A DNA stretch of 62,198 nucleotides, the filler included, from Bonamia ostreae (taxonomy: Eukaryota), in the NCBI GenBank assembly GCA_040357525.1. It is 8 parts of 8 records of this genome, joined end to end, with 100 filler letters (N's around TTAATTAATTAA, not from the genome) between each part and the next. Parts side by side here need not be neighbours in the genome. Positions count along the whole stretch, not along the records: positions 1 to 7,908 come from JBDODL010000069.1; 7 more parts are not named here. One strand, given 5' to 3'. How positions within the stretch are numbered: the stretch's first letter is position 1; the number at the start of each line of letters is the position of its first letter. The translations under genes and the position numbers were made by a program. Below are positions 1 through 53,883 of this stretch, in pieces. The notes under the pieces are model-generated. The model did no database searches. It worked only from the letters and a program-made list of their open reading frames with translations, and was not told the DNA's origin.

Positions 1-274
1 CTTGGATCAAACCGTCTCCAATTAGTCCTTTGGAACAATTCAATCTCGCAGAGAATAAGAAAAATACCAAAGGCGTTGACCTGACCAACCCAAATTTTCA
101 TAAATAAATATTCTAAAACTTCCAAAAATTACAAATTTGCCCTTAAAACAAATATCCGTAAATTTTGCCGAACTTTTATCAGTTGGCACTTTATAAAACG
201 TTTGTGCTACCACCGCAAACTTAAAAAGTTTACTCAAAAAACAATAAACAGTGCAATTTTAAACAATCGTTTAC

Positions 275-930
275 TCATCTGAACCGCTTCTGAGAGAAGA
301 TTCTCTTGAGATAGAACACCTGCGAGACTGAGATGAACACACACAACTTTACGTTAAAATAAAACAGCGTACACGAACACGCTGATGTACAATATCCGAC
401 TCCGAGACCGTCTCAGCTGTTTCTTGACGTAGCTCAACCGCGTTCTCAGGAAAGATTGGTGGTCCATGATCAGACTCAGTTCTTCCATTAAATCAAATTG
501 ACCTTTATTCGCTTCGAAAAACAGCTTTCCGATGTTCTGCAACTGCTCCTCTTTCGGGAGACTAATGATTTGGTTCATGTCGTCGACCCTTACGCTGAAA
601 TTGATGACCAAGAGCTTGTGCGTTTTGGATTCGAAGCAGATCATGTGCTTTCCTTCCGTGTTCCCGTTCAGTTCGATGTCGTCTTCGCGCCTTCCCGAGT
701 TGGAGAAGACCATTTCGTTTGACGGGGAGGTGATCTAGTTTCCATGTAGATTATTTTACGGTTATGACGAGGGCGTTTTCGACGTTGTTCAGGACTCTGT
801 AGCTCAGCCGCAACTTGTTCTGGAAGTCGACTTGTTGTTTGAAGCACGTCGTCCCTTGCACATCGACCACGTAGCTCTCGATATTCACCACGAGCAGCAA
901 AACGAGACAAATGAGATTGTCAAAGGGCAT
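275..930 (-). CDS. p24/TMED (emp24/gp25L) GOLD-domain cargo receptor
   Basis: Manual splicing (introns 735-759 and 347-365) gives signal peptide MPFDNLICLVLLLVV, a GOLD-like region (TTCFKQ...GKHMICF), a coiled coil, a C-terminal TM segment and tail VSQVFYLKRIFSQKRFR*. This is typical p24 architecture. Confidence 0.8.
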
Positions 931-991
931 CCGATTTTTGCTTAAGGCGTTTCGATATAAAGCGAACAAACTGCAAATTGATTTTTGTTCA

Positions 992-2640
992 ATGCCAAAA
1001 AAATCGCAAGATTTCGAAACACACTACCAGTTTACTCTATCAACCAAAGGCGCCAGATTCTGCTGAAACTGGCTTACGACGGTTCGGCTTACAGAGGCGT
1101 TGCGTACAGCACGGAGAAAGTGAACACGGTCGAAAAGAAGTTGCTCAGAGCGATGGCACGGCTGACATTGATCCCCAGCGACTTCAGTTTGAAGGGCATC
1201 AATTTCTCGAGAGCCGGAAGGACTGACGCCGGCGTCAGCGCAACGGGAAATTACGTTTCGGTCGCCGTCTTCGAAAGCTACAAAAGCGAAAGTTCTTTTG
1301 CGCAACAAAAGGAAACGTCAATTTTGCAAACTTGATTAACGGGCTTTTGCCACAGGACATCCGGATTCTGGGCTGGGCGCCCGTGGCACTGTGGTTCAAC
1401 GCTCGGTTTTGCTGCCGCGCGAGGATCTACAAGTACTCGTTTTTTAAGAACGACTTCGACTGCGGCAAAATGGAAGAAGCTTGCAGACGACTAAAAGGAG
1501 AACATGATTTCCGGAACTTTTGCAAAATCGACATTTCGAACACGACCAACTTTGTGCGCGAGATTTCGGATTGCCGCATTTCGAAGGTTTCAAAATTTTT
1601 CGTAGACGGCCCATCCGCACATCGCAGAATTCGTCTTCGAGGCAAACGGCTTTCTGCAGAGACAAGTGAGGTTTATGGTGGCGGTTCTTTTCATGGTCGG
1701 GAAAAATTTGGAGAGACCGGATGTCGTCGATTTCCTCTTGGACTTGGGCAGTTGCACTTCCAAGCCGTCGGTAACAAAATCAATTCAAAGTACAACGCCG
1801 CGCCCAGTTCGCCGCTGCGTCTCCACAACTGCAGATTCGGCAACGGAGAGCAAGACAAATTGGTCAACGCCGATTTCTCGAAGAAGTCGCTGTTGGTGGT
1901 GAGGAACCGATTGAGAGAAAACTGGCTCAAGCTCAATTTCAATGAACAGTTGTTAGCTGAAACGGGAGATCGTTCGAAAGAAACCAAAAGCAATTATTCG
2001 GAAAACTACAAAAATTCGGAAAACGATAAAAATTCTGAAGAAAATTTGAAAAACGGAAAAAATTGGGAACAAAAATTGGAAAACAACAAAAAATCGGAAA
2101 ACGGAAAAAATTCTGAAGAAAATTTGAAAAACGGAAAAAATTGGGAACAAAAATTGGAAAACAATAAAAAATCGGAAAACGGAAAAAATTGGGAACAAAA
2201 TTTGAAAAACGCAAAAAATTGGGAACAAAAATTGGAAAACAACAAAAAATCGGAAAACGGAAAAAATNNNNNNNNNNNNNNNNNNNNNNNNNNNNNNNNN
2301 NNNNNNNNNNNNNNNNNNNNNNNNNNNNNNNNNNNNNNNNNNNNNNNNNNNNNNNNNNNNNNNNNNNAAAAATTGGGAACAAAAATTGGAAAACAATAAA
2401 AAATCGGAAAACGGAAAAAATTCTGAAGAAAATTCGAAAAACAGAAAAAAATGGGTAAAGAATTTGAAAAACGGGAAAAAGTTAGAAAAAAAATTGGAAA
2501 GCGATTACAGATTTTTGAGCTGCAGGAAAAAGTACTTGGAAATAGCCAAACTGCCAAAGGAGCGAAGCGTGGCAGAGCGCATTGCAGCCGATTCGCTCAA
2601 AAGGAAAACCTTTCTTAAAGACATTAAACATGGCAAATAA
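992..2640 (+). CDS. PUS3: tRNA pseudouridine(38/39) synthase, TruA family (PUS3/DEG1-like)
   Basis: Motifs LKLAYDG, catalytic RAGRTDAGVSA, LLPQDIRILGW, FNARF, GEHDFRNFCK, ANGFLQRQVRFMV. The frame is restored by removing introns 1030-1049, 1292-1311, 1587-1605 and 1771-1790. Contains a repeat insert and a 100-N gap. Confidence 0.92.
2005..2500 (+). repeat. Coding minisatellite inside PUS3 (units such as KNSEENLKNGKNWEQKLENNKKSENG)
   Basis: Repeated aaaaattgggaacaaaaattggaaaacaa and aaaatcggaaaacggaaaaaattctgaagaa blocks flank the N gap at 2268-2367. Confidence 0.85.
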
Positions 2641-2696
2641 TTTTTACTTTATCCAAATTACTAATCTGTGCACTTTCCGCTTTTTCTTAGCAATTT

Positions 2697-4116
2697 ATGG
2701 AGAAACGGAGGAGGAGGAAGAAAAAGAAGGTAAATTTAACTTATTAAAGCACTCAAAGTTTGTTCTGTAATCGTAAAGGTGCAGCAATTGTGAGAAGACG
2801 GACGGGCCGTTCGAAAAAGTCGATGACCACCATCTCTGCGATGTTTGTTTGGACAAATATCGGAACGAAGGATTTGAACTGAAGCCAGAGAAGAAGCATC
2901 ATCGCAAAAAAAGCAAAAGCAGGAATAGAGACAGCGAAAACAGTTTTATTGAAATGGCGTAGACTCAAGAAAGAAGAAAAAGAAAAAGAAAAGCCAATCT
3001 CATCACAAAAGTTTTAGTTTAAGTCACCTTAGCTCACCTGGATGTTCCAGATGGAAGCTCGTTTGTTTTGGAGGAGAAAACCGAAGGATCATCCGTCGCA
3101 TCTTTGGACGAAGAAATAGCCAATGGAGAAGAACATCGCGAACCAATCGAAACGGAAGAAATAATTAAGATAAAGCAGGAAAAAGCAGAAACGACGACTG
3201 AAAAAGCAGAAACGACAATGGAAAAAGCAGAAACGACAACAGAAAAAGCAGAAACGACAATGGAAAAAGCAGAAACGCCAACAGAAAAAGCAGAAACGAC
3301 AACAGAAAAAGCAGAAACGACGACGGAAAAAGAAGCTGATGTCAGCGAAATAAAATCGCATGAACAAACAGAAAAAGTCGATCAAAAAGAAACAAGAAAA
3401 TCCATTGTTTCCCTAAACAAGCAGTCGAAGGTTGAAACCAAACAAAAATCAGATGAAAGGACGAATGAACTGGAAAAGCAAATTTCTGAAATGGAAGTTT
3501 CGTTCTTCAAAGAAAACGTTTTGTTTTAATTCGAAGAAACTTCTCAAATCCGAAGACCACTTATCTACCCTTTTGACCGGACTGTTACATGTAAACAATG
3601 TTCTAAAAGATGTTTTGTTGCTAAAATGAAGAAAGTGGCTGACGCCAAGCAGCGACACAGAGATCTGATCACTTTGCACAACAACTCGATTTTTCGCCTA
3701 AGACAAGTCATCAAAGAGAAAAACGACATTCTCAAGCGATTCGCCGAGTTCTATCCCGACATCAACAGCGGTCCGACCGTCCAGGAAGGGGTTAAATTTC
3801 AGTAATAAAAGGAGTTGGTCAACTCGGAAATCAACGAACTGGAAGATAAGCTCACGGACGCGAGAGTTTTTTAAAACATTTGTAGTCGGAGGTGACCATT
3901 TGGATTAACAAATACAACGAATTACTGACGATCAACGACAACTTGCGGAAGAAGATGGAATCGATGTCGCTCAAAAACTTGGGCGGCGAAGAATCGGACG
4001 AAGCAGACAAAGGGAGCGACATCGAAGCCAGCGGTTCAGAATACTACTCCGAATACGAATACGAAGAAGAACCCGCGGAGGAAACAACTGAGGCGGGAAA
4101 AGGGTGGCTTTGGTGA
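2697..4116 (+). CDS. Hypothetical multi-exon protein: basic N-terminus, CxxC...CxxC putative Zn finger, AETTTEK repeats, coiled coil, acidic tail
   Basis: Exons read MEKRRRRKKKK, CSNCEKTDG...HLCDVCLDKY, ORF 3068-3529 and ORF 3892-4116, separated by short GT-AG introns. The exon structure is approximate. Confidence 0.5.
3180..3330 (+). repeat. 21-nt coding tandem repeat (about 7 copies, EKAETT[T/M])
   Basis: gaaaaagcagaaacgacaa(c/t) repeated in tandem. Confidence 0.9.
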
Positions 4117-4135
4117 TTAAAAATGAGGATATACA

Positions 4136-7100
4136 TTAATTTGCGCATCCGATGATCGCGAATGAGAGCATGAACAGCGCTAAATTCATCGCTCCCAGAA
4201 TTCTCGTGTTCTTCTTGTGATTTTCTTCGGTTGAACCAAGAAACTTTCTCTGGAGCAGTTCGTAGTTTTTCAAGGTTTGAAACATTTCATCGCTGTCTTT
4301 CAGCTTTTTTTCCAGTTCACATATTTTCGCTCCCAGTTCTAGTTTTCTTCAGGTGATTTTTTATTAAAAATATTAAAACAATTCTTTGTCATCTTCGATT
4401 TTAGGCTTTTCGATTCCAACGCAGCGACCCGATTTTTCGGCAGAATAAAATTTTCCGACATTTGCCCTTCCTGGTAGCGTGGGATCGAGTTTTGCTCCTG
4501 GACCGAAATTCAGTCTGTTGAAAGCTGGGATCTTGTCCCAAGCTCCAACGGCGACGTTTTTGTCGTATTTTTTCGATTCGCTGTTTTTTATGTTCGTTTT
4601 TGAGTCGATGATGTACTTTTTTAACAAGATGTACTTCGAACTCAGAACATTGTTCAGTTCACCGCTAATTTGACCCAAAAACTCTTCAAACGGGAGACGA
4701 GTCAAGTGCCAGGCAGTTTGGTTTGTTTGGAACGCTTTTTTGATTGCTAACGGTTTTAGAATTTGCTCTTTGTCGTCAGTGCTGTCCTCGTAATCCGACG
4801 AGTCGTCTATAAAATGTTCAGCAAACCTATTTGGCTGTTGTAGTAGTCTGTATCGTCTGGCAACATGAAGCGATTTCGGGTAGATTTTGCATTCGGTTTA
4901 ACGCAGACAGCGTTGCTCCCGAATCTTTAAAGTCGATTGAAAAACGTGATCGGCTTGTTTTTGAATTTTGCTTTGTCTTCGTTTGTTCGAATGAGAATCG
5001 ACTGTCGTGGCTCGCCACAGATCTTCTGGGGTAGTTTGAACTCCATTCGGCTCAAGGAAAGGGTTATTTTGTTTATAGGAAAAAGATAAATTGAAAACAG
5101 GTTTATAAACGCTGTGAAGTTTGGCCATAATTGAAGCTACATAACGTTTTTGTTTATGTGGAGGTGTCGAAATTGTTATTGAATGATAACAATTTACCAA
5201 AATCTCTGTTGCTTTTAAATACCAGCAATTTATCACGTCTGCATTTATCAGGTCTGACGCAACGCTTTGAAAATTTACAAAAACTAGATTTCTACTTGAT
5301 CCATAATAAATTAATTTAAACTAGATTAAATTGTACTTAATCCAGAAAAAAAATTAAAATTAAAATTTATTCTGTCTTAATTTTGCCGATTGCTTATTTT
5401 GTGTGTTTGTTTCGTTGATCCATGGCTTTTTCCCTCTCCCTTCTCTTACCCATTTGATAAAAGTGCGCATGTATACCAATATCAGCATTTTATTCTTGTT
5501 CGGGTCTAGAAACAGTTCGTCAAAGATTTTTGCTAAAACTGGATTTCTTTTGTTGTCCAAAGGAAGTTTTCCCTCCACATTTTTGTTCGCATTTTGGAAA
5601 ATACCAAAAATCTTGTTGTACAAAGAGAAGAACTCTTTTTCAGGGAAGGGCTCCAAGTTTTTCAACGTTTCGTTCAAATAACCTTCATCGTATATTCGAA
5701 GAGACCTCTTTTCGATTGTTGCATCTTCTTCGATTTTGCTTTTTTTCTTTAAAATTTTCCGAGTTTTAGTGTAATCACAGCTTCTGATTTTTAAGCATTC
5801 TGTGTTGCATTCTGCGCAGTGCGCGCTAACAGAATTTGTTCTTCAATCAATAAACAAAACATTAAAAGGTGCAAGCCAAATAATTGATTAGTTTTACATT
5901 TTGAGCAGACGATGTTGATCTGGGCGATTGGTGACTTGCTCTACAATTTGAAATTAAACAAGTTCGTTCGCTTGAGACGTCATTTTCAGAGATTTTTCAG
6001 TTTTCTTTAAAATTCTTTCCAACTCTTTTAGATTTTCCTTTTCGTTCTCGTTTTCCGAGTTGAGTTGGTCGATCAATTTTTTGTTGATTTTTGTTTCGCT
6101 TTCAATTAAAATCTCAGCTTCGACTTTCTTTTTACTAAGCGACTACAAATTAGAGAGAAAACAGCAATTTCGTTTTCATACTTCTTCGAATCACGCAAAA
6201 ACTTCGCCTTGTCAGTTTTCGCTGGGTCCTCTTCTCCCAAATTGCTCAACTTGTCATCCAAATAGCGGTTAATCTCAGAGCCAATTTTCTTTATTTGGGT
6301 TAGATTATTTTGCTGACTTCCAACGAACGCAATGGCGTTTTCAGTCATTTCAACGCAACTTAGTCTGTTGTGTTGTTTTTTCCGCTTATTAAATATCTCT
6401 AAAAAGTAGTTTGCGAATTCTTTAGATTTGTCCAGCGAAGACCTCATGTAATTCGACAAATTCACCAGCTTTTGCATTTGCGCGGCGATCTTTGTTTTAA
6501 AATAAAAACAAATTGCATCGCTTGGATAATCGAATCAATCTTCCTCTCTTTTACGTTCAATCTGTTTTCAGAGTGGATTGAGCAATTGTCGATGTATTCT
6601 GACATTGATTTTCGCTTATCGTTTATATCACTTATCGCATCAAGTTTTTCTTCTAACGTGTTTTTATGACTGTCCAGTTTTTTGGATAAATCTGCTATTT
6701 GTTTTTGATAAGAGGACACTGTTTTTTTGTTGGTCTCAACCGAGTTTACTATATCCGACACAGCGTTTTTTGTATGGATTTTTCTGTCAGTAATTTTTTG
6801 TTGTTTATTTTTGAGCGACTGAATTTTGTCTTGTATAAATTTTAAAGATTTGTACTTTCTGATCATTTTTAATCGCTTATTGCTCTTAAACTTTTCTTTA
6901 GAAATCAAAAGGCGCTGTCGAGATAACTTTTTCTTTTCAATCAACTTTAAAATAATTGTATCGTGATTTTTAAGAATCTGTTCATTGACGCTTTTTTTAG
7001 AATACTCTTTTTTCCTTAGTTCTTTTATTTTATTTTGCAGAAGTACATATCTTTTAAAAGGGGTAATTTCTCTGTTCTTATTGTCAAAAATCAAAATGCT

Positions 7101-7259
7101 TGTTTCATCTGGAAAGTCATCGCTTTTGATAGAATTTTCGTCGACAACTTTTTCTATTATTATTCTAGAAAAATCAAAATTATGATCGTTAATTTTATTG
7201 TGAATGTTATTCTTGAATATAATTGTGTTTGTCAAGTTTGTTTTATTCTTTATTTTCAT
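4136..7259 (-). CDS. Hypothetical coiled-coil protein(s), multi-exon; one or two genes
   Basis: Successive minus-strand K/E-rich ORFs: 6462-7259, 6106-6477, 5360-5677, 4898-5236 and 4373-4705. No family recognised. Confidence 0.35.
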
Positions 7260-7908
7260 TTATTATTCTATCTCTAAAAATGGTGTCTAGTTTAAGCTAT
7301 TACCGAATAACAATAATTCTAATTTTTATATAAAAATTCATTAATAATTAACCTAACCCTTAAGCAATGAAAGCGACTTATTTATAACTGTGAGAGAACT
7401 TAATATTTTATTTTGGTGATCAATTCAATTCACGTATGTCGGGCTCACCATCAAAGTGCAATAAAGCATGGGTCTCCCACTTCTGTTTGCAGCTCGTATC
7501 ACAGTTTTATGTCGTTGCGATATTCCCATACATTTCAACTTTATAGAAGAAAGCGTAATAGCAAAAACATTTGTTTAAAGTAAATGCATTTGCCTCAAAG
7601 GCATTTTTAAATTCTCGCGCAATGGATTTTTTATAATTGTTATTCCCAATGTGACTAAATATATCATAAAAGACGAATTTATACGTCGTTATGTTACATT
7701 TAATAATTAAAAAACAATCCCGTTTCAGGTTTTACTCTATCAATCACCTATTCGAAAATTTTAAATACATTTGAAATATGTCTCTACATTAATCAAATAT
7801 TCATAATTAATATGGAAAAAAATTTGGACATACTCCAAAATTTGTATTAATTAATTAAAACTGAGTTAGCATCTAAATTCGTACAATCAAAGGAGTATGT
7901 GTGACTAA

Positions 7909-8008
7909 NNNNNNNNNNNNNNNNNNNNNNNNNNNNNNNNNNNNNNNNNNNNTTAATTAATTAANNNNNNNNNNNNNNNNNNNNNNNNNNNNNNNNNNNN
8001 NNNNNNNN
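7909..8008. other. Artificial contig linker N-TTAATTAATTAA-N (also about 15764-15863, 23614-23713, 31368-31467, 39121-39220, 46864-46963, 54534-54633)
   Basis: The same roughly 100-nt spacer with six-frame stops recurs seven times. Genes are truncated at these points and segment lengths decrease monotonically. Confidence 0.97.
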
Positions 8009-15713: not shown

Positions 15714-15863
15714 ATAAAAATATTTACTTTTTGAGCAAATATAAAAAATGAGCGTTTTTTCGCNNNNNNNNNNNNNNNNNNNNNNNNNNNNNNNNNNNNN
15801 NNNNNNNTTAATTAATTAANNNNNNNNNNNNNNNNNNNNNNNNNNNNNNNNNNNNNNNNNNNN

Positions 15864-18800: not shown

Positions 18801-21800
18801 TAATTTTCTGGTCGAAAACAAAACCATTTTTGGCATTTGTTGCAAAATAATCGAAAACAGACAAAAAAGCGATTTTGATAACGACAAACAAAACAAAGAC
18901 CGAAATTTAAAATTTTGCTACAAAAACGATTATTTGGATTGCGCTTTTGAGATATTAACAAATATCTTCGATTTCTACAATGAAAACAACAATGTTCAAA
19001 TTTTAAATCGCAAAAAAAAGATTCCGAAAAATATAAAAACGGAAACGCCAAAAATCTTATTCGCCATTTTTTCGAGAATAAAATCGATTAAGAACGAAAA
19101 ATCAAAAATCCACAAAGAAATCGATCTAATACTCAAATTATTCAATTTTTTGGAGATAGAAGACGACTTCCGAAGAACAACTCTAAATTTACTGCAAATT
19201 TTAGACTACAAAAAACTAAATTTTAGAATTTCGAAGAACTTCCGAGAAACGACTTTCGAAGAAAACTCTTGCGAAGAATCCCGTTTAGACAAAATCGTCA
19301 ACTGCATTTTGACCGCAAATAGCAAAATTGACGACAAAAACATAAGCTTAAAACTATGGACTTTTCTGTCTAACAATATAGAGGAAACAGAAAATTTGTC
19401 GAAAACGGCGAAAAGAATTAAAATTCTTTCGGGGGGACTTAATTTTGATAGTATCGGTGATTTTGTGGAAGGGCTTTGTTCGTTCATAACAGTCGGAAAA
19501 ATCGATCCGGAAATAGATTACGAACGACGGACGAAGACGTATTTTGAAATAAAGAAAGAAATGCCAAATTTGATGAAAAGCGAAAAAGTGGCTATAACGC
19601 CCTGTCTAAATTTGTTCTTCCGAGATCTCAATTCCGACGATTTTGGCTTAAGGAACCAAGCCGTTATAGTGATAAAAGATATTTGCCGATTCTTAAAAAA
19701 TGGCGACGAAAATATTAAAATTGAAAATGGGAACAAAAATGACATTAAAAATAGCATTAAAAAAATGATTGTCAATGGACTTTCATTAAAAAACAGTAAA
19801 TTAGAGACAAAAATGGCCTGTATGGAGATACTTAGACAAATGCTTGAACACAAAAATGGTGTTTTTGGAGATTTAGCCAAATTGCTAAATGTTGAAAACG
19901 AAGATCTCGATTTCTTCGTCAACTTTTTTCATATTCAGACGCACAGAAGAAGAAAAGCAATTTTGCAGTTGCAGAAAATGGCGAAATCTTGTTTTTCAGG
20001 TAAATCGGAAAATGGCGAAAATTCTAAAAATGGCGTTTCAAAATTGAAAAATGGATTTAGTTCTGAAAGCGTTTCAAAAGTTTTGGTGCCGCTTTTGTTG
20101 CACCATATTATCAATTCGAACGCGAAGACGATAGTTTTTAATCAAATTCCAAAATCGATTTCTAATTTTAAATTAAAAAAGAGCTTAAGAGAAGAAGGTT
20201 TAAAGACGCTGACGCCACTATCTTCATTTCTTGAATGGAACAGCACAATGAAATGGTCAAATTTTTTCTTCAAAAAACTGAAAGAAAATTTGTCAAACGA
20301 AAAAACATTTGTCAGCTGCATTTGCGCTATAATCGAAAGCAGCCAATTTGAAAATTCAAACAATTTGGCGAAAATTAACTTTGACAAAAATTTTTTCAGA
20401 AATATTGTCGTTTCTTTAATCGATCGGAATTTGAAGTTTATTTAAGTTGAGAATTAATAAACTTTTAAGAATTAAAGATTAAATTAATATTCCCAAATTT
20501 TAATATAATTATTATTTTGCTTTTAGAAGACGTTTTTACAACAATTTTATAAAATTACTTTTTTGCTTTAAAAGACGTTTTTACAACAATTTTACTAATT
20601 TTATTTTAAAAACTGAAAAAAGTTAAAAATTAATAAAATTCAGCAAAAAACAGAAAACGAAAGATTTACAAAATTTGTCAAATCGATTAAAGTCTTTAAT
20701 TCGAGACAGAAAAAACAGAGATCTGATAAGGTCTCAAGTCGCTGTCGCTGTAATCAAACTTTGCAAAATTTTTAGCCAAGACGAATTTAGACGAGAATTC
20801 TCAAATCTAGTCATTGAAATTTGTTCTTCTTTGAAGAGTCGACAGCTACAAGCCAGAGTTCTTAGATAACTGAACATTTTAAAATTATCTTTTCAAAACT
20901 TGGTTAAAATATAAATCCAAAAACAATTAAAAGAACGAAGCCAGATTTGCATTGAACCAAATAATAAAAATCGCAGGCGCAAATCACATTAAGTTCGCTT
21001 TGGGCGTAATGAAAAAAGTCTTGTTGAAGGGATACCAGAAACACGTACTCGGATACTCTCTGAATTCGTTGTTGTCCTCGATTTTGGAATGGGCTGAAAA
21101 GGGCTCTTTGGACGATTTTGCGCCTAATTTGGTTCAGATTTTGTTGGAAGACATTTTTGGAAGACCTTCGGAAGATCGTTCTGTCGAGAAAATAAAATAT
21201 TCAATGAAAGAAGCGTCGTCTGAAAAATCATTCGACTCTTTTCGGATTTTGGCCAAAATGGTCAACTTTCGCCAAAGTGAAAAAGGACTAAATTTGATTT
21301 TGGATAATGTTCAGAAAACATTTTTCAAAAAATGTTTTGGCTAAATTTTTCAAAAACATTCGATGAACATTTGGATAATTTTTACGACGATTTTATTATT
21401 TTGGCTAAAATTTAACGAGAAATTTTTTAACTCGATTTTGCTATTTTACGAGACTTATTTTTTGTTGTTTAACAAATAGACAAAGATTCCGAAAAAGCGA
21501 ACGAGAAAAATGAAAAATTGACCGATCGGATAATAAGCGGAATCGAAGAAAACGATTCTGTAAAAGCGGACGTTCTGGTGCAAATCATTTCTGTAAAACT
21601 TTCCAAATGTTTTAGAGAGAAAAATAGAATCGATGAGCAATTTTCTAGTTTTAAAAATTATAAATTTTTCTAATTTTAAATTTTAAAAATTTGTAAAAAA
21701 GAATCGACGAAAAAACCAATTTTATCTCAAGAGGGAATTGAAAGAAAAATAACTTTATTCAAGAAAAAAAATTTGTCAACAAAAGAAAGTGCTCAAATCA

Positions 21801-23613: not shown

Positions 23614-23855
23614 NNNNNNNNNNNNNNNNNNNNNNNNNNNNNNNNNNNNNNNNNNNNTTAATTAATTAANNNNNNNNNNNNNNNNNNNNNNNNNNNNNNN
23701 NNNNNNNNNNNNNTTAAAAAAATTGATCAAATTGTGTACAAATTTTTGGAAAAATAAAATAATAAAAATGATGAAAAAAGAAAATACTAATTCTTATGAC
23801 AGCAAAGGTTTTCAATCCAAGATACAACTAATAAAGATAATCAATTTCTTTCAGA

Positions 23856-31367: not shown

Positions 31368-31581
31368 NNNNNNNNNNNNNNNNNNNNNNNNNNNNNNNNN
31401 NNNNNNNNNNNTTAATTAATTAANNNNNNNNNNNNNNNNNNNNNNNNNNNNNNNNNNNNNNNNNNNNTAGTAGATTAATTTTGTCTAACAATCGCATAAA
31501 TCTCTTTCAACATATTAAACAAAAACTTTTTTTGTCAATAAAATATTTCAATTTATTTTTAATTGCTAAATAAACGATAGA

Positions 31582-32442
31582 ATGGTATCAAAAATAATAC
31601 TTCTGTTTTTAACAAATATTTTGATCATGGTACAATCAGATTCCATAAACCAGGAAGTCGACGGAGACTTAAAATATGACATCAAAACACTTATATCCGA
31701 AAAAGACTGGTCTACACTATTCCCTGTTCAAGGAATACGCGGGTGCCATGGCGCAGAATTACTCTCACACAAAAACTTTGTCGCTGCGGTGGAAGAAGTT
31801 TGGGCCAAAGGCTCGAAGTTCCTCAGATCAAAAAATATGCAACAGAACCGCGTCGAGCTTGCTGCCTTCCTTGCACAAACCAGCCACGAAACTACCGGCG
31901 GATATGATGGTGCCAAGCCACCTCGCTATTTTTGGGGATACTGTTTCCCCACAGAAATATCTCACGCCAATAAATACTGCTCAGAGGCTTCAGCCGCTAC
32001 TTGCAAAGCAAACCACTACGATTGCAAGTGCGTTCCTGGTAAAGCATATTATGGAAGAGGGCCGATAATGCTAAGTTGGAACTACAATTATGGCAAATTC
32101 AGTCAAAGTTATTTCAAGGACAACCGATTGATGGCGAATCCTGATTTGCTGGAAAAGAAAGGCGATATCGCTTTTATTGCAGCTATTTGGTTTTGGTCGA
32201 CTCCCGACTATTCGAAGCCATCTTGTCATGATGTCATTCTCGGAATAACCAAACCTTCTGATGTAAGGGGGCGCGATGTCGGATTTGGATTGCTTACGGA
32301 CATCATCAATGGCGGGCTTGAATGCGGTCATGGCAATGACAAAAGGGAAAATGATCGGATTGGCTTCTATAACCACTATCTGAAGTACTTTGGAGTATCT
32401 GACAACCGTCAGAAATCTTGTGCCCATATCAGACCATTCTGA
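31582..32442 (+). CDS. Secreted glycoside hydrolase family 19 chitinase
   Basis: Signal peptide; AAFLAQTSHETTGG (catalytic Glu), WGYCFPTE, YYGRGPIMLSWNYNYG, AAIWFW, PSCHDVI, IINGGLECG, DRIGFY. Intronless. Confidence 0.95.
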   Translation: MVSKIILLFLTNILIMVQSDSINQEVDGDLKYDIKTLISEKDWSTLFPVQGIRGCHGAELLSHKNFVAAVEEVWAKGSKFLRSKNMQQNRVELAAFLAQTSHETTGGYDGAKPPRYFWGYCFPTEISHANKYCSEASAATCKANHYDCKCVPGKAYYGRGPIMLSWNYNYGKFSQSYFKDNRLMANPDLLEKKGDIAFIAAIWFWSTPDYSKPSCHDVILGITKPSDVRGRDVGFGLLTDIINGGLECGHGNDKRENDRIGFYNHYLKYFGVSDNRQKSCAHIRPF

Positions 32443-33183: not shown

Positions 33184-33672
33184 TCACTTCTTTGATCTAC
33201 TAGAAATCTTGGATGTGGAAGGTGGAATAGCGCTTCCTGGAGGTCCTGGAGGTCCTGGGGGTCCCGGAGGTCCGATATTTCCATTAATACCTGGAGGTCC
33301 TGGAGGTCCAGTAACTCCTTGGGGTCCAGGTTGTCCTTTCAAACCTGGTAAACCAACAGTCGGGGGTCCAACTGGGCCAATTTCTCCGCTAGGTCCCTTA
33401 GCTCCAGGAGGTCCCATTGGAGCGGCAGGTCCTGGTGGTCCGGGAGGACCTACTGGTCCTGGAATTCCTTGGGGGCCTGGTCCGCCTTTGCCTGGAGGAC
33501 CCTGTAGTCCAATCATACCAGGCTTTCCTGAACATCCTGGTTGACCAGGAGTACCTGGATGGCCTGGAGGACCGACAACATCAGGGCCAGGTGCACCAAT
33601 CTTTCCTATAGGGCCTGGTGGTCCTGTCGGTCCCTGCGGGCACAAATTCTTCATACTAATTTCCGTTTTCAT
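33184..33672 (-). CDS. Short collagen-like (Gly-X-Y) protein 1
   Basis: About 135 aa of Gly-Pro-rich triplets with short interruptions. N-terminal Cys, internal GCSG, Ser/basic tail, no signal peptide. Confidence 0.9.
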
Positions 33673-34027
33673 TTGAAATCACTGAAGCAGTTAATCTATC
33701 CATTCTCGTTCCATTTACATTGAAGAAATTTTAAATATTTGTTAAGCTATCAACAATAAAAAATGTTTTTACTGAGTTAATCTTTATTGAATGATTCATG
33801 TCTAGATCATCTATATTTAAATTATGGGACAGAAGAAAGGGTATCAATAAGAGATTTAGGAAATCAAAAAGTATATAAAAACTCAAGAAGTAAAAAAAAC
33901 AAGTTAAAGAAGGATAACTAAGAATATAGCGAAAAGAAAGACAAAATCGAAACAACATATTTGCACTGTCGTTATTTACCACATAAAATTACAACAAAGA
34001 AATTTATTCACGATAACAAGAAGCCGA

Positions 34028-34513
34028 CTAATTATTTCTAGATCTTGCCGAAGCTGAGGAAAATGGGGAACCAGGCGGGCCTGGTGGTCCAGGAGGTCCA
34101 GGAGGTCCAATTAGTCCTGGTTCTCCCAATGGTCCCACCGGTCCTCCAAATCCTACTAAACCCAAATCTCCTGGTGGCCCCGGTGGCGCGTCTCCAGGGA
34201 TTCCTGGTGGTCCCGGGGGTCCTTGAGGCCCTGTTGGTCCAGGAATTGTCGCAGAGGCACCAGGAGGACCAGGGGGTCCCGGTTGACCAGGAAATCCTTT
34301 TGGACCAGTAGGACCGATAATGGACAGCCCTTCAACGCCATCTTCGCCTTGATTTCCCGGGCAACCAGGTTTTCCACTGCAGCCAGGTTCTCCAGGGGGT
34401 CCTTTTACCTTTTGTCCCGGTTCTCCCATTGCTCCTGGAGGTCCACAAGGGCCTGGCGGTCCTGGCGAGGCATCAGGCTTTTTTTCATAACAATCTTGAA
34501 AGCAATCCTTCAT
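34028..34513 (-). CDS. Short collagen-like (Gly-X-Y) protein 2
   Basis: [10 protein letters not shown] followed by triplets containing GPC, GCSG and GCP. Ser/Arg tail. Confidence 0.9.
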
Positions 34514-34755
34514 TAGTTCTTTCTATAAAATTGCAATCTTTCAAACATGTTCGACATGAAAGAAATTTAATTTATTTGGCTTTTCAATTTCGACTTTTTC
34601 AGATTTGATAATAATTCTCAAAATTTTTTTTAACTTTTCCCAAGAAGTTTTATTTTGGATAAAAATTTCTTTGAAGTATTTAAAACAACAAGAATTTTTA
34701 TTTTCCGCCTTCAATAGGAAAATGAAATTGCCAAAAGCCAAAATTAACCGAATGA

Positions 34756-35427
<672 letters not shown>

Positions 35428-36419: not shown

Positions 36420-38930
36420 TCACTCTTTTGTGATCCAAAAACAGAGCTTGGCCACTTCTCCCGAAAAGTTTTCGATTGAATAACTATTTTGTTTGGGCGC
36501 CAAAAAACAGGACCCCTTAAAAAGTGCCAAACTGCTCCCGTTAATCAAAACTTTTATACCTCTCTCACCGGCTCCGTGAACAAAAAACATCTTTCCGTTA
36601 TTCTATGTAAAAACTTGATTAAAAAGAGGTTTTTCGAGCTGCTTAAGGGATTTCGGAGGGATCACCAAGAATCCAAATGAAAATTGATCAAAACTGAGTG
36701 CCTTTGTTGCTTTTAATTTTATTAAAAAACCAAAGACATGTTTTCCCTCTCCTTGGGCGATTTTTTTTAATTTGACGGAAGCAAACGATTTGGCCACAGC
36801 TTTAATTAAATATCAAAAACTTGCACTTTTGGGCACCAAATTACCGCTTCTGTTTTCTACCAAAACTTGTATGGGCTTTTCGACAGTGTTTAACTGATCT
36901 TTGACCATTGTGCTATCGTCGAAAACGATGGTCGCTTCTGATTTAGGAGACTTTATTTGTCGCAACAAAACCTTTGATGCTTTTGTCGATCTTTCTTTTT
37001 TCTTTTTTCTTTCTATTTTCTTCATCAGTCTTTCTTTTAAACTGCCTTTTTTCTCAACAATAGGTTCTTCTGTTTCACCAAAGTTATCAAAATTGTCGTC
37101 TTGGAAAGTACTTTTCGCTACATTATACCCCCCAATATCTGAATCGCCTTTAATGGCCGATTTTTTCAGTTTTTTCTTTTCTGATCTGCGCTTATTCGGG
37201 AACTTTTTTGCTTTTCTGTGCTTATCTGAAGCAATAAATTGTTTTGTTTTGTTTTTTCCTGTTTTCTTCTTTAGGACTTTTTTGACTGGGGCTATTAATT
37301 TAGGAGCAATTTTCTTTCTTTTGAGACGGACGGAGCTTTCAAACGTTATAGCTCTGCGTTTTCGACCCAGCCGCTTTTTAAGACTTTTGGCGCTCTTCGT
37401 TTTGGCGCGAGGTCTTTTTGCTTTACTCGGGACTGAATCGTTATCTGGATTAACATTTTCGACAATATCTGTTTCCCCAAAATCGCCATCGTCTTTATTT
37501 CCGATGACAATTTTTTCGGGGAGATGCTTTTTAGGGCCATTTTTACGACTGGCAACTTTGGTAACCTTTTTGCCAACAATTTTGTGCTTTCCTGGCACAA
37601 CAGATTGTTTTTCAGTTTTTTTGATTTTGTTTCTTTCATTGAAAATGACATAGCCGTTCGCGACAGGAAGGCCGTTTTCTCCTTTAGTCCACTTCACCTT
37701 TTCTCCGATCCACCATTTTAAAGGGGAACGCTTGTTCCTAATTGATCTTCTTTTGCCGGACATTGCGGCAGATTCAGTTTCGTCCATTGTTACAATTTTC
37801 GATTGAATACGTTTATTCTTTTTTGTTCTGTTTTTTGGTTTCGATGTTCTATTTTCCTCGGAGGTTATTTCAATTCTTTCTTTCAATGACTTTTTAGGTT
37901 TAATCTGTACATCCAAATCTCCTTCATTCATATCAAATGCTTCATCATTAAAATTCGGGTCTTCTTCGTCGAGCTTGTTTTCAGAAGACTTTTTTATCGA
38001 ATCTTTGAAGTGTCTGGACTTGAACGTTTTTAGCGATAAGATTGGCGATACAATTCCGATGTTCACAGCTTTTCTCGTTTTGGCTTTTGGTGTTCTTTTT
38101 AGTTCCTTAAAAATAAAGTTGTTGGCTGGAACCTCTGTGCCCTTTCGGATGTTGACATCTTCGGGTTTTTTCGTTGAAGAGATCTGATTTTTTGGCGGCA
38201 ACAACCTCTTGGATTTGCGAGGCCTTCCTCTAGATTTTTTGGCTGGAGCTTTCGATTTGTGTTTTTTTGCCGTGTGCTCTTTTTCTATTTTGTTTATTTC
38301 TTCGCCCAGTTCGTCCAGCTTTTCTTTTATCTGCGCAGTCTTATCGTTCGGGAGTATATCTATTTTCTCTGGCGCTTTTGCCGTCGCGTAAAGATTGGTT
38401 TTAAGTTTTTTGTCTTTTGTTATAAAAAAGAACAATCTTTAACTCGGTTTGATTCTCTTGTTCTGACGTAATCCGGGGATGAAGATGATTCTTCAAAGGA
38501 ATTTTTTTCTTTTGGTAATTTTAAATTACGGTTAGACAGCGGCGTTGAAAGTTTTGCGTTCGCTAATTTTGGTTTTTCCGCTATTTTGATTTCGCGTGAC
38601 AGAAGAGGAGGGAAGATAATGTCATTGTCGTAGATCAGGGAGCTGTTTTCTTTGTCTGGAAAAATTTAACTGCGAAACCGTCAGTTTCAACTTCTGCGTT
38701 GACCGAGTCTTCCTCTTCGTTGCTGTAAAGTAATCCATCCAGAAAATCTACTTCTTTTTCCTCGTTGTCCTCGCTAAGTCCAGATTTGTTCAAATCCAAT
38801 AACTCTTCTTCCGACCCCAAAAACTCGTTTTGTGAGCTGTTCAGAAAATTTGTGATTCTGTTTAACGATTGTTTCTTCGAAATTAAAATAAAACAAATAT
38901 TGTTGACGTGTTTGCGTGTAAATCAGACAT
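36420..38930 (-). CDS. CENPC: Centromere protein C (CENP-C/Mif2)
   Basis: CENP-C motif KRRSIRNKRSPLKWWIGEKV, AT-hook-like RGRPRK, and a C-terminal cupin (FSFGFLVIPPKSLK...YSIENFSGEVAKLCF). Confidence 0.88.
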
Positions 38931-39271
38931 GAACGATTTAGCTTTTTTTGTTTATATTTTTATATTCAAATTACCTATACTCCAAATTACTAAATCCTAA
39001 TTAGAGCTTAAAAATTTTTGATACAAATTTTTTATTTAATAAGAATTTAATCTCTCCATTTTACATTTCAAACTATATAAAAATTCTCCATTCTAATAAT
39101 GTTTACGAAGATATGTCGTTNNNNNNNNNNNNNNNNNNNNNNNNNNNNNNNNNNNNNNNNNNNNTTAATTAATTAANNNNNNNNNNNNNNNNNNNNNNNN
39201 NNNNNNNNNNNNNNNNNNNNAAAAAGCAATTCAATAATATCCAAAAATAAACAAAAAATAACGGCAAGATT

Positions 39272-44076: not shown

Positions 44077-45006
44077 ATGAACGAGACAAGGACATTATCG
44101 GAAGCGAGTAAACTCGCCGAAAAAATTGATCGCGCTGAAAAAGAAGGAAAACTGGACGAAGTGGCCGACGCGACCAAAAGTTTAAAAGCGTTGCTCTACA
44201 AATATTCAACTCCTTCGGAAAACTCCATCAACGAAAAAAACATTTCATTTTTTCTGCTCTCGCGTTTCGCATTGGAAGTCTCAGCTCTGACCGATCTGCT
44301 CAAAAAGGATTTTTTGGGCTTCGAAAACAACGTCAATATTTTGATTCCTTTTTATTTCGATCTCAACGAGTTTTCTATTTTCCTAAAATCAATCTTCAAA
44401 AATGATCGAATTTTATTTTAAAATTTTTTTGGAAAAAACTAAATTTTAAAAAATAGCAATTTGGAGAATTCTGATAAAAAAGAGTTGATTTTAGGACTTG
44501 TGTTGTTACATTACCTCTCCGAAAACCGGACAGCGGCTTTTTACAATTTGTATGAAAAAATGGACAGAGCAACCTCCGGAAGCCAAAATGTCCGATTTGC
44601 GCTGCGGATCAAAAAATGTTTGGATCGGGGCTCTTATTCTCACATTCTCAATTGCTACTGCGAATTGCCGTCTCCGTTCTACGGCTATTTGATGGAGTCG
44701 CTTATAAAATCGACAAAGTTCTGAGCGAATTTTAACCAAAAAAGGGCGAAAATTTTCGAAGCGATGGAAAAAAGCAAATCAGAAATGACGAAAGAATCGA
44801 TGATAAGAATAGCAGGAACGGAGTTAACGGCGGAGGATGTCAAGAAATTGGGAGAAGAGAGGAAATGGAAAGTCGATTCGGAAGGAACGGTTCATTTTGA
44901 GGACGAGAATTCGAGTTTGACCAAAGAACAATTGCTAAACAAAGCTTCAGACAATCTGATGAGTTTGTCGTACGCCCTCGTTAAGGACTCCGAACGGATC
45001 GTATGA
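44077..45006 (+). CDS. RPN12: 26S proteasome lid subunit RPN12/PSMD8
   Basis: SRFALEVSAL, FENNVNILIPFYFD, ILGLVLLHYLSENRTAAF, LDRGSYSHI, PSPFYGYLMESL and C-terminal SYA..SERIV. Two introns. Confidence 0.9.
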
Positions 45007-46572: not shown

Positions 46573-47029
46573 GTTAAAAATTAGCAAGTTTAGGTTTAGA
46601 AAGGCCGTCTAAATATAATAATTCTCGTGTTCGAAAATAGCTTTTAAATTTAACTTTGTTTTTTTAATATTTTTGTATAAAAAATAAAGTTTCCAAATAA
46701 CGAAATAAAATTTGTCTTTGAAAATGGAGCCTCACAAAAATAGAGCGAAAATTAAAACAAATTTAGACTTTCTACTCCATCAAAATTAAACAGAAATCAA
46801 TAAAACAGTCACAAAAATAAAACAGTGATTTAAAATAACAAAAAAAACAACTTCCAATAAATCNNNNNNNNNNNNNNNNNNNNNNNNNNNNNNNNNNNNN
46901 NNNNNNNTTAATTAATTAANNNNNNNNNNNNNNNNNNNNNNNNNNNNNNNNNNNNNNNNNNNNAACAAACCAAAATTTCGCAATAAAAAAGAACACACCA
47001 AATTTTCTACATCTCAACAATAAACAAAA

Positions 47030-48301: not shown

Positions 48302-49237
48302 TTAATTTATAAATTCGGCAAAGTTCGAATGACCTGTTTCAGAACCATGTTTCACGGCCTCTTCGTTGCCAACGAAGCACCTGCGACAAACAAGACAACG
48401 CAAAGTGTAGTTTTTCTGGTCAACAAACTGATTTTGCTCTTTCAGCTGAGCGGCAAAATTTTGCATTTTCGATTCAGTTTTGTAGTCGCTCGAGTCGAAA
48501 ACCGTTTCGTCACTTTCCTCTGCCATTTCTTCACTGCGGTTTATAGATAAAGCGTCGTAATGGATTCCGTCGTAAACTTTCGATTAAAGTTTAATTGAAA
48601 CGTAAATAAATCCGTTTGGAATAATTTTCGTCTTCCCCAAAAATCAAAATGTTTTTGCTTCTAATGTCCATTATTGCGATTTCGCGATTAAACAGTTTCG
48701 ACAAAATTTTAGTTTCGACTGAACCTCCCCATTTCGACTTCTTCGAAATCCAATCAACGTATTCTCGAATAGGTTTTCCGAGAATGCCTTCATTGAATTC
48801 GGACTTATTGTTTAAAATATATGATGCGCACTTTTTGCGCAAATCGGAAGCTTCGGAATCGCTTCTTCGTTTGGTTAAACAGAAGATGACCGAAGTGAAA
48901 AGACAAGAATCGTTAGCTGGAATGATCCTTTAATTTATATTCAAGATCGACCTTCTGATGACTATGCGATTGTCAAAGTCCGAAACAGGGACATTTGAGT
49001 TTTCAACGATTAACAGTTTTGATTGCAGATCGGAAACCAAATCTGCGTCGTTCAGAAGAACGGCTTTTGGTGGAACGCCGGTTTTTACTAATTTTAATGG
49101 CTGAAACTAGAGAAATCTCCGATTTCTAAAATCCGGTCAATTTTAGTTCGGAGATCCAAAAATGTCAATTTTTCATCTAACGCGACTGTAAATTTTTTGT
49201 TTTTAAAGCGCAATCGAAAATCAACGGATTTTCCCAT
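48302..49237 (-). CDS. OTU1: OTU1/YOD1 deubiquitinase
   Basis: UBX-like N-terminus (TGVPPK), IPANDSCLF, WGGSVE, YDGIHYDAL and zinc finger LRCLVC...HGSETGHSNFAEF. Introns of 20, 24 and 25 nt restore the frame. Confidence 0.92.
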
Positions 49238-49456: not shown

Positions 49457-49998
49457 TTAGGAATCGTCTTGATATTTAGCCAAATCTCGCAACAAGTCTT
49501 GGACCGGTTTTTCGTTTTCGGCAAACTTGGCTTCTAAAGAAGGGATGAGCGTTATCGCTTCGTCGGTGGATCCGACGCACAAATTGTTGATCAAAGCGAT
49601 TTCGAGAGGATCGAAATCGCCTTCAATCACATGTTTGTTCTGGCTAATTCTTAAAATTTAGTTTTAAAACACAGACGCTTCTTTAAGCGCATCTGAACTT
49701 TTGAAGTTGTGGAGTTTGCTCACATAGTCAAAAGTTTTCTGGACAATGCTTTAAATGGAAAATTTTGGGTAAATTTTTATTCGACTAATTTTAATGAAAT
49801 CTGACAAAATTTGCGAATTGGGGAAACTTGTTTCTGGGAAGATCAATTAATTCAGAATTTGAATTTAAATATTGATCGAGCATATAATAGACTTCGGAGT
49901 TCCAAAGTGGACGATAATTTTCGGGTTCTTTATTAGTCGAAAATAAAACTATCTACATAGGGTTGTTTTAACGGGTCTTTGTTGTTTTTGTCATCCAT
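49457..49998 (-). CDS. RPB4: RNA polymerase II subunit RPB4
   Basis: Spliced product contains LWNSEVLYML, IVQKTFDYVSK and FDPLEIALINNLCVGSTDEAITLIPSLEAKF..VQDLLRDL. Three introns. Absent from the ORF track. Confidence 0.88.
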
Positions 49999-53366: not shown

Positions 53367-53883
53367 ATGACTTCCACCGCGATGGTCCAATATCCGATAA
53401 ATAGAAAGTTAACCGTTCCAGACGACAAAAGGATAAACTGCCCAAAACATAAAATAAGCTTTTTGGATCCTCCGACAAAAAGACGTAGATTCTTACGCAT
53501 CGACAAAAACGCTTCCTGTAGAAAACCGAAAAACGACATAAATTCTTCCACAGCATTTAAAAAAGCTTCAAAAAGAGTCCGCGACGAAATATGTTTTGCT
53601 AATTTAACTAAAAACAGCAACTGCAAAACTGAAATGGCCGGAAAAGTTTTTGAAAAAGTCTGAAGGCGACAAAACTAAAAGAGTTTACACTGCAAACGAT
53701 GTCGACGAAATTTTGGGGACGGTCACTGCCGAAGTTTACGAAGAAATCGAAAGACGGCTCTCTTTCGAATTCGAAATGGTTCTAAGACAAAAATTGGATG
53801 AGCAACTGCGCCAGTTCCGCCAATTCAGCAAAGATAATTTTGCGAAGGCTTATGGAGAACACTCTTTGAAATATATCTCGTAA
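53367..53883 (+). CDS. AKIRIN: Akirin
   Basis: PTKRRR NLS-like motif; the C-terminus EFEMVLRQKLDEQLRQFRQFSKDNFAKAYGEHSLKYIS* matches Akirin (EYE.IL..KL.EQ...F..F..D......SYVS). Intron 53593-53617 joins the two ORFs. Confidence 0.82.

Follow-up and report, generated by a model that had tools for sequence, protein, structure and literature searches.

Ultrashort GT-AG introns of about 20 nucleotides in an intron-dense sequence filed under Bonamia ostreae

Introduction

How short can a spliceosomal intron become, and which signals does the spliceosome truly need to find it? Both are open questions, for which lineages with introns of 15-28 nucleotides (nt) serve as natural experiments. They are raised here by a 62,198-base stretch of DNA (the window) from the Bonamia ostreae assembly GCA_040357525.1, in which conserved protein domains are split again and again over neighbouring open reading frames (ORFs) in differing frames. 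A first-pass annotation of this sequence had proposed six tiny introns near the start of the window, where a p24/EMP24-GOLD cargo-receptor gene and a PUS3/Deg1-type pseudouridine synthase gene lie, and had listed similar introns in five further genes.

Our analysis confirms the presence of ultrashort introns in the window. The segments are very probably U2-type GT-AG spliceosomal introns which have shrunk to about 20 nt (19-33 nt) in a compact and intron-dense genome, likely that of a dicyemid-like source. Tiny introns as such are already known from dicyemids and myxobolids; those described here have a shorter mode and a different donor.

Results and Discussion

Segments present in DNA contigs are missing from RNA contigs

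Logan contigs of four sequencing runs (X3, X7, X1 and X2) were aligned to the first contig of the window (positions 1-7908). X7 is recorded as RNA-Seq of a 'mollusc metagenome', X1 and X2 are DNA runs and X3 was treated as RNA. X1 and X2 have no cover over 1-2016, and X3 has none in some bins. Eleven segments with GT..AG ends, measuring 20, 20, 20, 20, 20, 20, 21, 21, 22, 25 and 33 nt, are missing from the RNA contigs of X3 and/or X7. One of them (735-759) belongs to the p24 gene and is listed with it below. The other ten, together with a micro-exon enclosed by two of them, are as follows:

2730-2749, plus strand: 20-nt intron GTAAAT..AAAG; X7 joins 2729 to 2779 with only CACTCAAA between, and DNA record 2 of X1 keeps the segment with 0 gaps
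2750-2757, plus strand: 8-nt micro-exon CACTCAAA, kept in the X7 RNA contig between the 20-nt and the 21-nt intron
2758-2778, plus strand: 21-nt intron GTTTGT..AAAG, from the X7 contig that keeps CACTCAAA and from the gene finder
2943-2962, plus strand: 20-nt intron GTTTTA..GTAG; past 2942 the loose end of X7 reads as window 2963-2992
3011-3032, plus strand: 22-nt intron GTTTTA..TTAG; ahead of 3033 the loose end of X3 reads as window 3001-3010
4347-4379, minus strand: 33-nt intron GTTTTA..GAAG; joint 4346/4380 in X3 and X7 RNA, not in X1 and X2 DNA
4807-4826, minus strand: 20-nt intron GTTTGC..ATAG, skipped in X3 (depth 4133) and kept in X1 and X2 (0 of 8.5 and 0 of 7.95)
4925-4945, minus strand: 21-nt intron GTTTTT..AAAG, skipped in X3 and kept in X1 and X2
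5841-5860, minus strand: 20-nt intron GTTTTG..GAAG, skipped in X3 record 20 and kept in X1 and X2
6143-6162, minus strand: 20-nt intron GTTTTC..GTAG, skipped in X3 record 20 and kept in X1 and X2
6490-6509, minus strand: 20-nt intron GTTTTT..AAAG, skipped in X3 record 20 and kept in X1 and X2

All of these except 735-759, which lies outside the DNA cover, are covered and kept in the contigs of X1/X2 (10 of 11). The joints seen in RNA are exclusively of the GT..AG type (CT..AC for genes on the minus strand), and where a contig ends loosely across an intron (735-759, 2943-2962 and 3011-3032) its loose end matches the window letter by letter. Since the segments are present in DNA contigs and gone from RNA contigs, they are excised at the level of RNA. 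The alternative that had been left standing beside the original proposal, namely assembly error, is thereby ruled out by ten segments of the same type.

The X7 contigs also locate the end of a transcript. A poly-T loose end at 4124 (4124-4138) marks a poly(A) site about 12 nt past the stop codon of the minus-strand gene at 4136-5046, so that the 3' untranslated region of this gene is extremely short.

X1 and X2 both join 5204 to 5275 and skip 70 intergenic nt with TC..AT ends (5205-5274). The difference lies in the DNA, as an indel that separates individuals or assemblies, and is not an intron.

Excess of 20-nt introns over chance

The chance frequency of such segments was controlled with a gene finder. 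It works by dynamic programming on a 3-periodic second-order coding model trained on the window and contains no splice-site matrix; its introns are constrained solely by the dinucleotide pair at their ends. The run with GT..AG yielded 53 introns in 31 gene models, 18 of them exactly 20 nt long, while 15 alternative dinucleotide pairs yielded 25-49 introns each, with 0-5 of 20 nt. With an earlier choice of parameters, introns of 19-22 nt numbered 25 for GT..AG and 1-9 in 13 controls. This gene finder took the place of two less useful tools: a count of all donor/acceptor pairs bridging open frames of at least 50 codons, in which GT..AG reached only 0.5-2.9 fold and which was too diluted, and an initial gene finder (plain codon usage, intron penalty -9) which missed most genes.

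Five of the six introns first proposed were found in this way, as were all of the RNA-shown introns with the exception of 2730-2749, which was read as coding. The sixth, 347-365, is missed because the unspliced frame stops four codons past the donor. Two early predictions of the gene finder had a wrong donor. Stop-free introns whose length is a multiple of three are invisible to the gene finder, and the depletion of such lengths, put forward earlier as something to look for, was therefore judged on the RNA-verified set; this small set does not support it, since 3 of its 11 introns have a length divisible by three.

Intron density in the window is high: the 28.2 kb predicted to be coding are interrupted by 53 predicted introns (1.9 per kb). 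The gene model at 2368-4116 contains 8 predicted introns in addition to the RNA-shown 2730-2749, and PUS3 contains 4. The window needed no intron beyond about 76 nt.

Introns of the p24 and PUS3 genes

The two genes are transcribed divergently and have the following features:

278-930, minus strand: p24/EMP24-GOLD cargo-receptor gene with exons 930-760, 734-366 and 346-278, from the Pfam family EMP24_GP25L and a gene model
735-759, minus strand: p24 intron 1, 25 nt, GTAAAA..CTAG, from an X3 loose end and the gene finder
347-365, minus strand: p24 intron 2, 19 nt, GTTTTATTTTAACGTAAAG, with GT..AG ends and restoring the end of the EMP24 profile (E 0.047)
992-2267, plus strand: PUS3/Deg1-type (TruA family) pseudouridine synthase gene with five exons, from TIGR00071, PF01416 and a hidden Markov model (HMM), ending in a low-complexity repeat and assembly gap
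1030-1049, plus strand: PUS3 intron 1, 20 nt, phase 2, GTTTAC..AAAG; HMM ungapped over amino acids (aa) 12/13; retained in X3 contig 15
1292-1311, plus strand: PUS3 intron 2, 20 nt, phase 1, GTTCTT..AAAG; TIGR00071, HMM and relative P0001; retained in X3 contig 15
1587-1605, plus strand: PUS3 intron 3, 19 nt, phase 0, GTTTCA..GTAG; TIGR00071 and PF01416; retained in X3 contig 15
1771-1790, plus strand: PUS3 intron 4, 20 nt, phase 0, GTAACA..AAAG; gain in HMM score; retained in X3 contig 15

The proposal that these six segments are introns is borne out, as all of them have exact GT..AG ends on the strand of their own gene, measure 19-25 nt and are supported by frame, homology or RNA. In p24, the segment 735-759 is spliced in two X3 RNA contigs, and the loose end at 734 reads GGTTATGACGAG, which is window 760-771. 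The EMP24_GP25L profile is matched by exon 2 at positions 43-161 and by exon 3 at positions 165-182.

Excision of all four PUS3 segments results in a single open frame starting at the ATG at 992; the frame of exon 2 has no upstream ATG of its own. TIGR00071 is collinear on the exons, which match it in order and without overlap (exon 2 at profile positions 1-67, exon 3 at 77-165 and exon 4 at 170-210), and the profile of PF01416 resumes from 34 to 43 over 1587-1605. For a closer comparison an HMM of PUS3-like proteins was built from 76 of 150 representatives retrieved with exon 3 and kept by length (380-620 aa). The spliced PUS3 protein scores 334 bits against it. The alignment is gap-free over junctions 1, 2 and 4, and a variable-loop deletion adjoins junction 3. 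Junction 1 (KKSQDFETHYQ|RQILLKLAYDG) stands opposite the N-terminal motif of the family. Excising 1771-1790 gains 39 bits (256.0 vs 217.1), and with this segment removed junction 4, KPS|YNAAPSSPLRLHNCRF, matches the family consensus. The only longer homologue returned, P0001, is 58% identical and continuous over junction 2. Metagenome relatives, sought for conservation of the introns (80 loci at 40-54% identity), were not used.

The PUS3 reading frame runs into repeated sequence. An A-rich tandem repeat with a 78-nt unit (1996-2490, 94% matches) codes for KNSENGKNWEQKLENN-type repeats and continues in frame from the PUS3 C-terminus through the one genuine assembly gap of the window (2268-2367) into the next gene model; the gap may conceal a gene boundary. 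Within that next model (2368-4116) a 21-nt tandem repeat at 3179-3332 (7.3 copies, 90% matches) codes for EKAETTT repeats.

Evidence against excision and its weight

Several observations weigh against reading these segments as working introns. The RNA status of X3 is a guess, backed by its depth range (0 to 17,611) and by the missing introns themselves. The coding model was trained on models based on GT..AG, which tilts the control somewhat towards this pair. In the classes of 23-35 nt and above 35 nt GT..AG gave no excess over the controls with the earlier parameter set, and many of the longer predictions are probably noise because no excess is seen above 22 nt. X3 record 20 keeps the predicted intron 5941-5959, which is therefore either a false call or a retained intron. 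Backing for 347-365 is weak, the 23-aa exon behind it matching the last 18 EMP24 positions with 14.2 bits (E 0.047). Furthermore, the sole X3 RNA contig on PUS3 (record 15, 848-2045, depth 362, 0 gaps) keeps all four introns, and there is no RNA contig with the PUS3 introns spliced out. This contig moreover extends through the sequence between the two genes into the divergently oriented p24, disagrees with the window at 16 letters, and has G for C at 1436, which changes a conserved Tyr codon (TAC) to TAG in the spliced frame. Removal of the proposed introns from RNA thus holds for 735-759 and fails for the four segments of PUS3, retained in a single RNA contig.

Because it includes intergenic sequence, carries 16 differences and has TAG at 1436, record 15 is possibly not an mRNA; it may stem from pre-mRNA, from antisense or read-through transcription, or from another strain in which the allele is decaying. 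Among its 14 listed differences 3 lie upstream of the PUS3 ATG, 11 in the spliced coding sequence and 0 in the introns, and the 11 comprise 5 synonymous, 5 missense and 1 nonsense change.

Two alternatives draw on this contig. The first explains the segments by mistakes of sequencing or assembly, or by frameshifts in pseudogenes; in its favour one can cite the retention of the four PUS3 segments in an RNA contig that also has a nonsense change. We consider this extremely improbable, since ten like segments are kept in two DNA runs and precisely gone from RNA contigs, every segment has GT..AG ends, the excess of exactly 20-nt introns is 18 against 0-5, and spliced PUS3 reaches its 334 bits with ungapped junctions.

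The second is that the PUS3 segments are introns by descent that are spliced poorly or never, with most PUS3 RNA retaining them. Record 15 with its four retained introns, in a place where no spliced contig exists, speaks for it, as does the low splicing efficiency of tiny introns elsewhere, with a median of about 25% in microsporidia (cited in PMC13644364); for Mikrocytos, 63% vs 37% is given for 16- vs 17-nt introns in excerpts of PMC10245619. However, Logan contigs represent the dominant path only and yield no ratios, the contig crosses two divergent genes with a stop at 1436 and may not be PUS3 mRNA, and the spliced frame of the window itself is intact and conserved. We therefore regard predominant retention in PUS3 as unlikely, while splicing may be inefficient for a number of introns, those of PUS3 among them.

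Length, splice sites and composition of the introns

The anatomy of the introns was described on a validated set of 17, namely the 11 missing from RNA contigs and 6 backed by homology. Two of them measure 19 nt, nine 20 nt and two 21 nt, and the remaining four 22, 25, 27 and 33 nt; the median is 20 nt, as it is among the 11 RNA-verified introns. All 17 have GT..AG ends. The donor is GTT in 14 and GTA in 3; 12 introns have T at +4, and 10 have T at +5. At position -3 of the acceptor, 11 introns have A, 6 have T and none has C, so that introns end in AAG or TAG and never in CAG. A wider set of 44, consisting of the validated introns and the gene-finder introns of 19-23 nt minus 5941-5959, has T at +3 in 34, T at +4 in 29 and A at -3 in 23. 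Compared with the 44% T of intron interiors, the frequency of T at +3 is raised in both sets (binomial p = 0.0013 for 14/17 and 6e-6 for 34/44). Both of the splice-site features noted at first sight, GTT-type donors and AAG acceptors behind an A-rich tract, are thus recovered.

The introns are asymmetric in composition. Their first half is T-rich (49-53%) and their second half A-rich (38-41% A), and in the 20-nt class A occupies positions 10-14 in 7-11 of 19 introns. No pyrimidine tract precedes the AG beyond two weakly Y-rich positions, and no exon-side consensus is visible in the validated set. The motif yTnAy is present in 10 of the 17 validated introns, at no fixed distance.

A hairpin in which the T-rich half pairs with the A-rich half and serves as a length ruler was tried and rejected: the mean minimum free energy is -0.30 vs -0.38 for shuffled sequences in the set of 17 and -0.50 vs -0.47 in the set of 44.

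Possible consequences for the spliceosome

Introns of this size would be cut by intron definition, with the spliceosome near its lower steric limit, and the branch adenosine would be located in the A-rich block, presumably 6-11 nt from the 3' end. The canonical 5' end of U1 small nuclear RNA (snRNA) is ACUUACCU and the canonical U6 motif is ACAGAGA. Recognition of the 5' splice site would have to depart from canonical U1 pairing, because GUUU pairs with just two positions of the standard U1 5' end, +1 and +2.

The first-pass annotation had proposed a divergent spliceosome, in which U1 and U6 have changed to suit GUUU or U1 has been lost, and in which 3' recognition tolerates AAG without a pyrimidine tract. 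The preponderance of GTT among donors (14 of 17), the lack of CAG among 17 acceptors, the missing exonic consensus and the pairing of GUUU with U1 at +1 and +2 only are consistent with such a change. On the other hand, splice sites in intron-rich genomes are commonly weak and degenerate although the snRNAs are unchanged. Precedents point both ways: mikrocytids, with introns of 16-17 nt, are without detectable U1 or U5 snRNA in excerpts of PMC10245619, while myxobolids with introns of 22-27 nt possess a conventional U2 branch-point region and U2AF1/2 (PMC13644364). A divergent spliceosome is thus a tentative reading, to which we give somewhat less than an even chance.

A narrower proposal is that the source is a parasite of animal or animal-like descent whose introns, typically of 20 nt and thus below the published animal minimum (a median of 22 nt), begin with GUUU in place of GUR, a donor that canonical U1 could not read; such a lineage would carry co-evolved U1/U6 or select its 5' splice sites independently of U1, at the steric minimum of the spliceosome. 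We hold this to be rather doubtful. The GUUU-type donor would make a concrete prediction open to test: that U1 has either changed in compensation or been lost. A search of the window for snRNA genes gave no match at the Rfam gathering threshold, and at E<=1 only a chance match to RAGATH-25 appeared.

Comparison with known ultrashort introns

The list of systems that had been named as parallels, chlorarachniophyte nucleomorphs, ciliates and Mikrocytos, omitted the closest cases, which are the dicyemids and the myxobolid myxozoans. In what follows, PMC2222250, PMC6543705, PMC6736024, PMC9250747 and PMC10245619 are represented by excerpts.

Published intron lengths of dicyemids are 26.2 +/- 1.9 nt in D. 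acuticephalum (n = 16; PMC2222250), a median of 27 in Dicyema sp. (PMC6543705) and, in D. japonicum, a mean of 38 (PMC6736024) or Q10/Q25/Q50/Q75 of 22/23/24/25 (PMC13644364 table S14). The window resembles dicyemids in its GT-AG introns of narrow length range, mostly below 30 nt, with several per gene (about 5-6 in dicyemids, a comparably high density), in a reduced AT-rich genome. Weak splice logos with A upstream of AG are likewise shared, as probably is the setting of an animal parasite with sequence of a molluscan (in their case cephalopod) host. In contrast, median and mode are 20 nt here and 19-nt introns occur, whereas those of dicyemids are centred on 24-27, and the donor is GTT in 14 of 17 here and 'GTa' in dicyemids, as known from the description of the logo in the text; the one RPS13 intron of D. 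japonicum examined starts with GTAATA. Short introns of dicyemids may nonetheless share the preference for T at +3.

According to a 2026 paper the shortest animal introns are those of T. kitauei and M. rasmusseni, with a median of 22 (PMC13644364). The same paper describes the donors of myxozoans and D. japonicum as reduced to 'GTa' and their acceptors as reduced to 'AG', and finds the U2 branch-point region canonical and U2AF present in myxozoans in spite of introns of 22-27 nt. The myxobolids (Thelohanellus kitauei, Myxobolus rasmusseni and Henneguya salminicola; PMC13644364) share with the window many GT-AG introns of 20-22 nt, the lack of a polypyrimidine tract and poorly conserved A's upstream of the AG that are interpreted as the branch point. 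They are unlike it in their 'GTa' donor, in medians of 22-27, in their hosts (fish and annelids) and in an additional class of long introns (Q90 of 317-2911 nt).

The mikrocytids Mikrocytos mackini and Paramikrocytos canceri (PMC10245619) are also parasites of molluscs or crustaceans with tiny uniform introns and incomplete splicing, and a reduced spliceosome without detectable U1 is reported in the excerpts of that paper. Their introns, however, are 16 or 17 nt long, number 224 in 179 genes and are highly conserved in sequence, whereas those of the window are 19-33 nt, dense and degenerate, and mikrocytids are rhizarian protists without animal-type genes. The nucleomorph of Bigelowiella natans (18-21 nt, cited in PMC2222250) has introns of the same length class with GT-AG ends, and GT-AG introns are found in Babesia microti (20 bp) and Porospora (28 bp), where a conserved A lies about 6 nt before the acceptor (PMC9250747). 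These are genomes of relic endosymbiont nuclei or of apicomplexans, which the collagens, Sushi, Kringle and RhoGAP domains of the window do not fit. Searches of the literature for a GTTT donor consensus with short introns, for an Aggregata genome and for orthonectid intron lengths beyond I. linei returned nothing relevant.

Against this background a sharp 20-nt mode with U at +3/+4 and AAG acceptors would be a data point with signals unlike those of dicyemids and myxobolids. Gene callers that rely on ORFs, or that set a higher minimum for intron length, do not see contigs of this kind, which apparently spread as contaminants through sequencing runs carrying the names of other organisms.

Likely source of the sequence

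The gene content of the window was surveyed by a Pfam scan of all N-free stop-to-stop ORFs of at least 50 aa (251 of at least 70 aa and 252 of 50-69 aa); it is eukaryotic and resembles that of an animal. Housekeeping genes are represented by p24/EMP24, the TruA-family pseudouridine synthase, UTP20, a class-I Trp/Tyr-tRNA synthetase, RPN12/PSMD8, RPL35Ae, OTU1, RPB4, SDA1, CENP-C and one DnaJ exon. Genes for surface, matrix or signalling proteins comprise animal-type domains, namely three collagen triple-helix genes, Sushi, VWA, Kringle and RhoGAP. A GH19 chitinase and a DDX60-like gene were also matched.

From these domains and the introns, the most fitting source is most likely a dicyemid-like 'mesozoan' parasite, and some other reduced animal parasite would also be possible. 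Dicyemids live in the kidneys of cephalopods and are known for the miniaturisation of their introns. The DNA runs that contain the sequence, at about 8x, bear the name of another organism; it also occurs in X3, where its depth varies strongly, and in the 'mollusc metagenome' RNA of X7. The best named relatives of SDA1 look opisthokont, being from Acropora, Dendronephthya, Trichoplax and glomeromycete fungi, and protein searches with SDA1 and with the Sushi-repeat protein returned family names only and no useful taxa. By eye, the three collagen-like proteins show none of the cysteine-rich end domains of minicollagens. Against a dicyemid, the intron length of 20 nt and the GTT donor differ from the published 24-27 nt and 'GTa'. 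RPL35A is taxonomically uninformative, with plants, fungi, alveolates and flatworms at 50-63% identity.

It is a distinct possibility, although not the one we favour, that the source is instead a myxobolid-like myxozoan, an orthonectid of molluscs, an apicomplexan or a member of an undescribed group. For myxobolids, the mode of 20 is nearer to M. rasmusseni and T. kitauei (Q10-Q25 of 20-21) than to D. japonicum (Q10 22, Q50 24), and two cnidarians are among the best named matches of SDA1; but myxobolid hosts are fish and annelids, while one of our runs is labelled mollusc, and the myxozoan donor logo is described as 'GTa' and not GTT (PMC13644364). For orthonectids, the intron median of I. linei is 56 (PMC13644364 table S14). 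For ascetosporean parasites of molluscs, the excerpted sources give 0-2 introns per mRNA, or introns of 16-17 nt, so that these rhizarians are a poor match. For apicomplexans, one can point to the 20-bp introns of Babesia microti and the 28-bp introns of Porospora, yet the latter is a poor match as well, with 54% G+C and a mode of 28 (PMC9250747). Eimeria, Theileria and Babesia are among the top named matches of RPL35A. The window nonetheless contains a RhoGAP gene, and apicomplexans are not known to have Rho GTPases.

Introns in other genes and composition of the window

Short introns were located in further genes of the window:

44718-44744, plus strand: 27-nt intron of RPN12/PSMD8; exons match PF10075 at 2-80 and 86-138, and the gene finder agrees
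48577-48601, minus strand: 25-nt intron of OTU1, from the gene finder; the flanking exons are the OTU and OTU1 zinc-finger domains
48928-48951, minus strand: 24-nt intron of OTU1, from the gene finder
49088-49107, minus strand: 20-nt intron of OTU1, from the gene finder; the preceding exon matches OTU1_UBXL
49650-49670, minus strand: 21-nt intron of RPB4 with in-frame stops; by eye, removal gives ..ALKEASVISQNKHV..
53593-53617, plus strand: 25-nt intron of an Akirin-like gene, from the gene finder alone

The three lengths previously given for OTU1 (20, 24 and 25 nt) were all reproduced by the gene finder, and the 27-nt intron of RPN12 is supported by the gene finder together with the collinear PF10075 matches. 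The 21-nt intron of RPB4 restores the frame, and the exon behind it matches PF03874 at 69-116; the gene finder picked a 23-nt variant in another frame. For the gene that we take to be Akirin-like, the 25-nt intron is predicted as stated, while the gene name is without a Pfam match. The 26-nt intron attributed to DnaJ could not be upheld: the J-domain exon ends at 31316 and GTTTTC follows, but beyond an AG 8 nt from this donor there is none in the remainder of the 51 nt up to the contig end. Pfam-collinear exon pairs in SDA1 (51594-51670), UTP20 (20858-20933) and CENP-C (36603-36815) have no single GT..AG solution of up to 80 nt, and the same holds for SDA1_C, the sole candidate intron in the UTP20 gap being one of 76 nt; these gaps may contain more micro-exons, longer introns or introns with other ends.

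The window is composed of eight separate contigs of about 7.7 kb, arranged in falling order of length with N44-TTAATTAATTAA-N44 linkers between them, so that adjacency across linkers carries no meaning:

7909-8008, 15764-15863, 23614-23713, 31368-31467, 39121-39220, 46864-46963 and 54534-54633: linkers

No tRNA genes were found in the window. Its G+C content is about 33% and its genetic code is standard; the 31 gene models end in TAA (16), TGA (11) or TAG (3), and one enters the gap. Three short, intron-less collagen triple-helix genes of 162-200 aa lie on both strands at 33184-35427, where G+C (47%) is above the window mean. A GH19 (class I) chitinase at 31627-32442 (E 1e-58) consists of a single exon and belongs to a family that is unusual in an animal genome.

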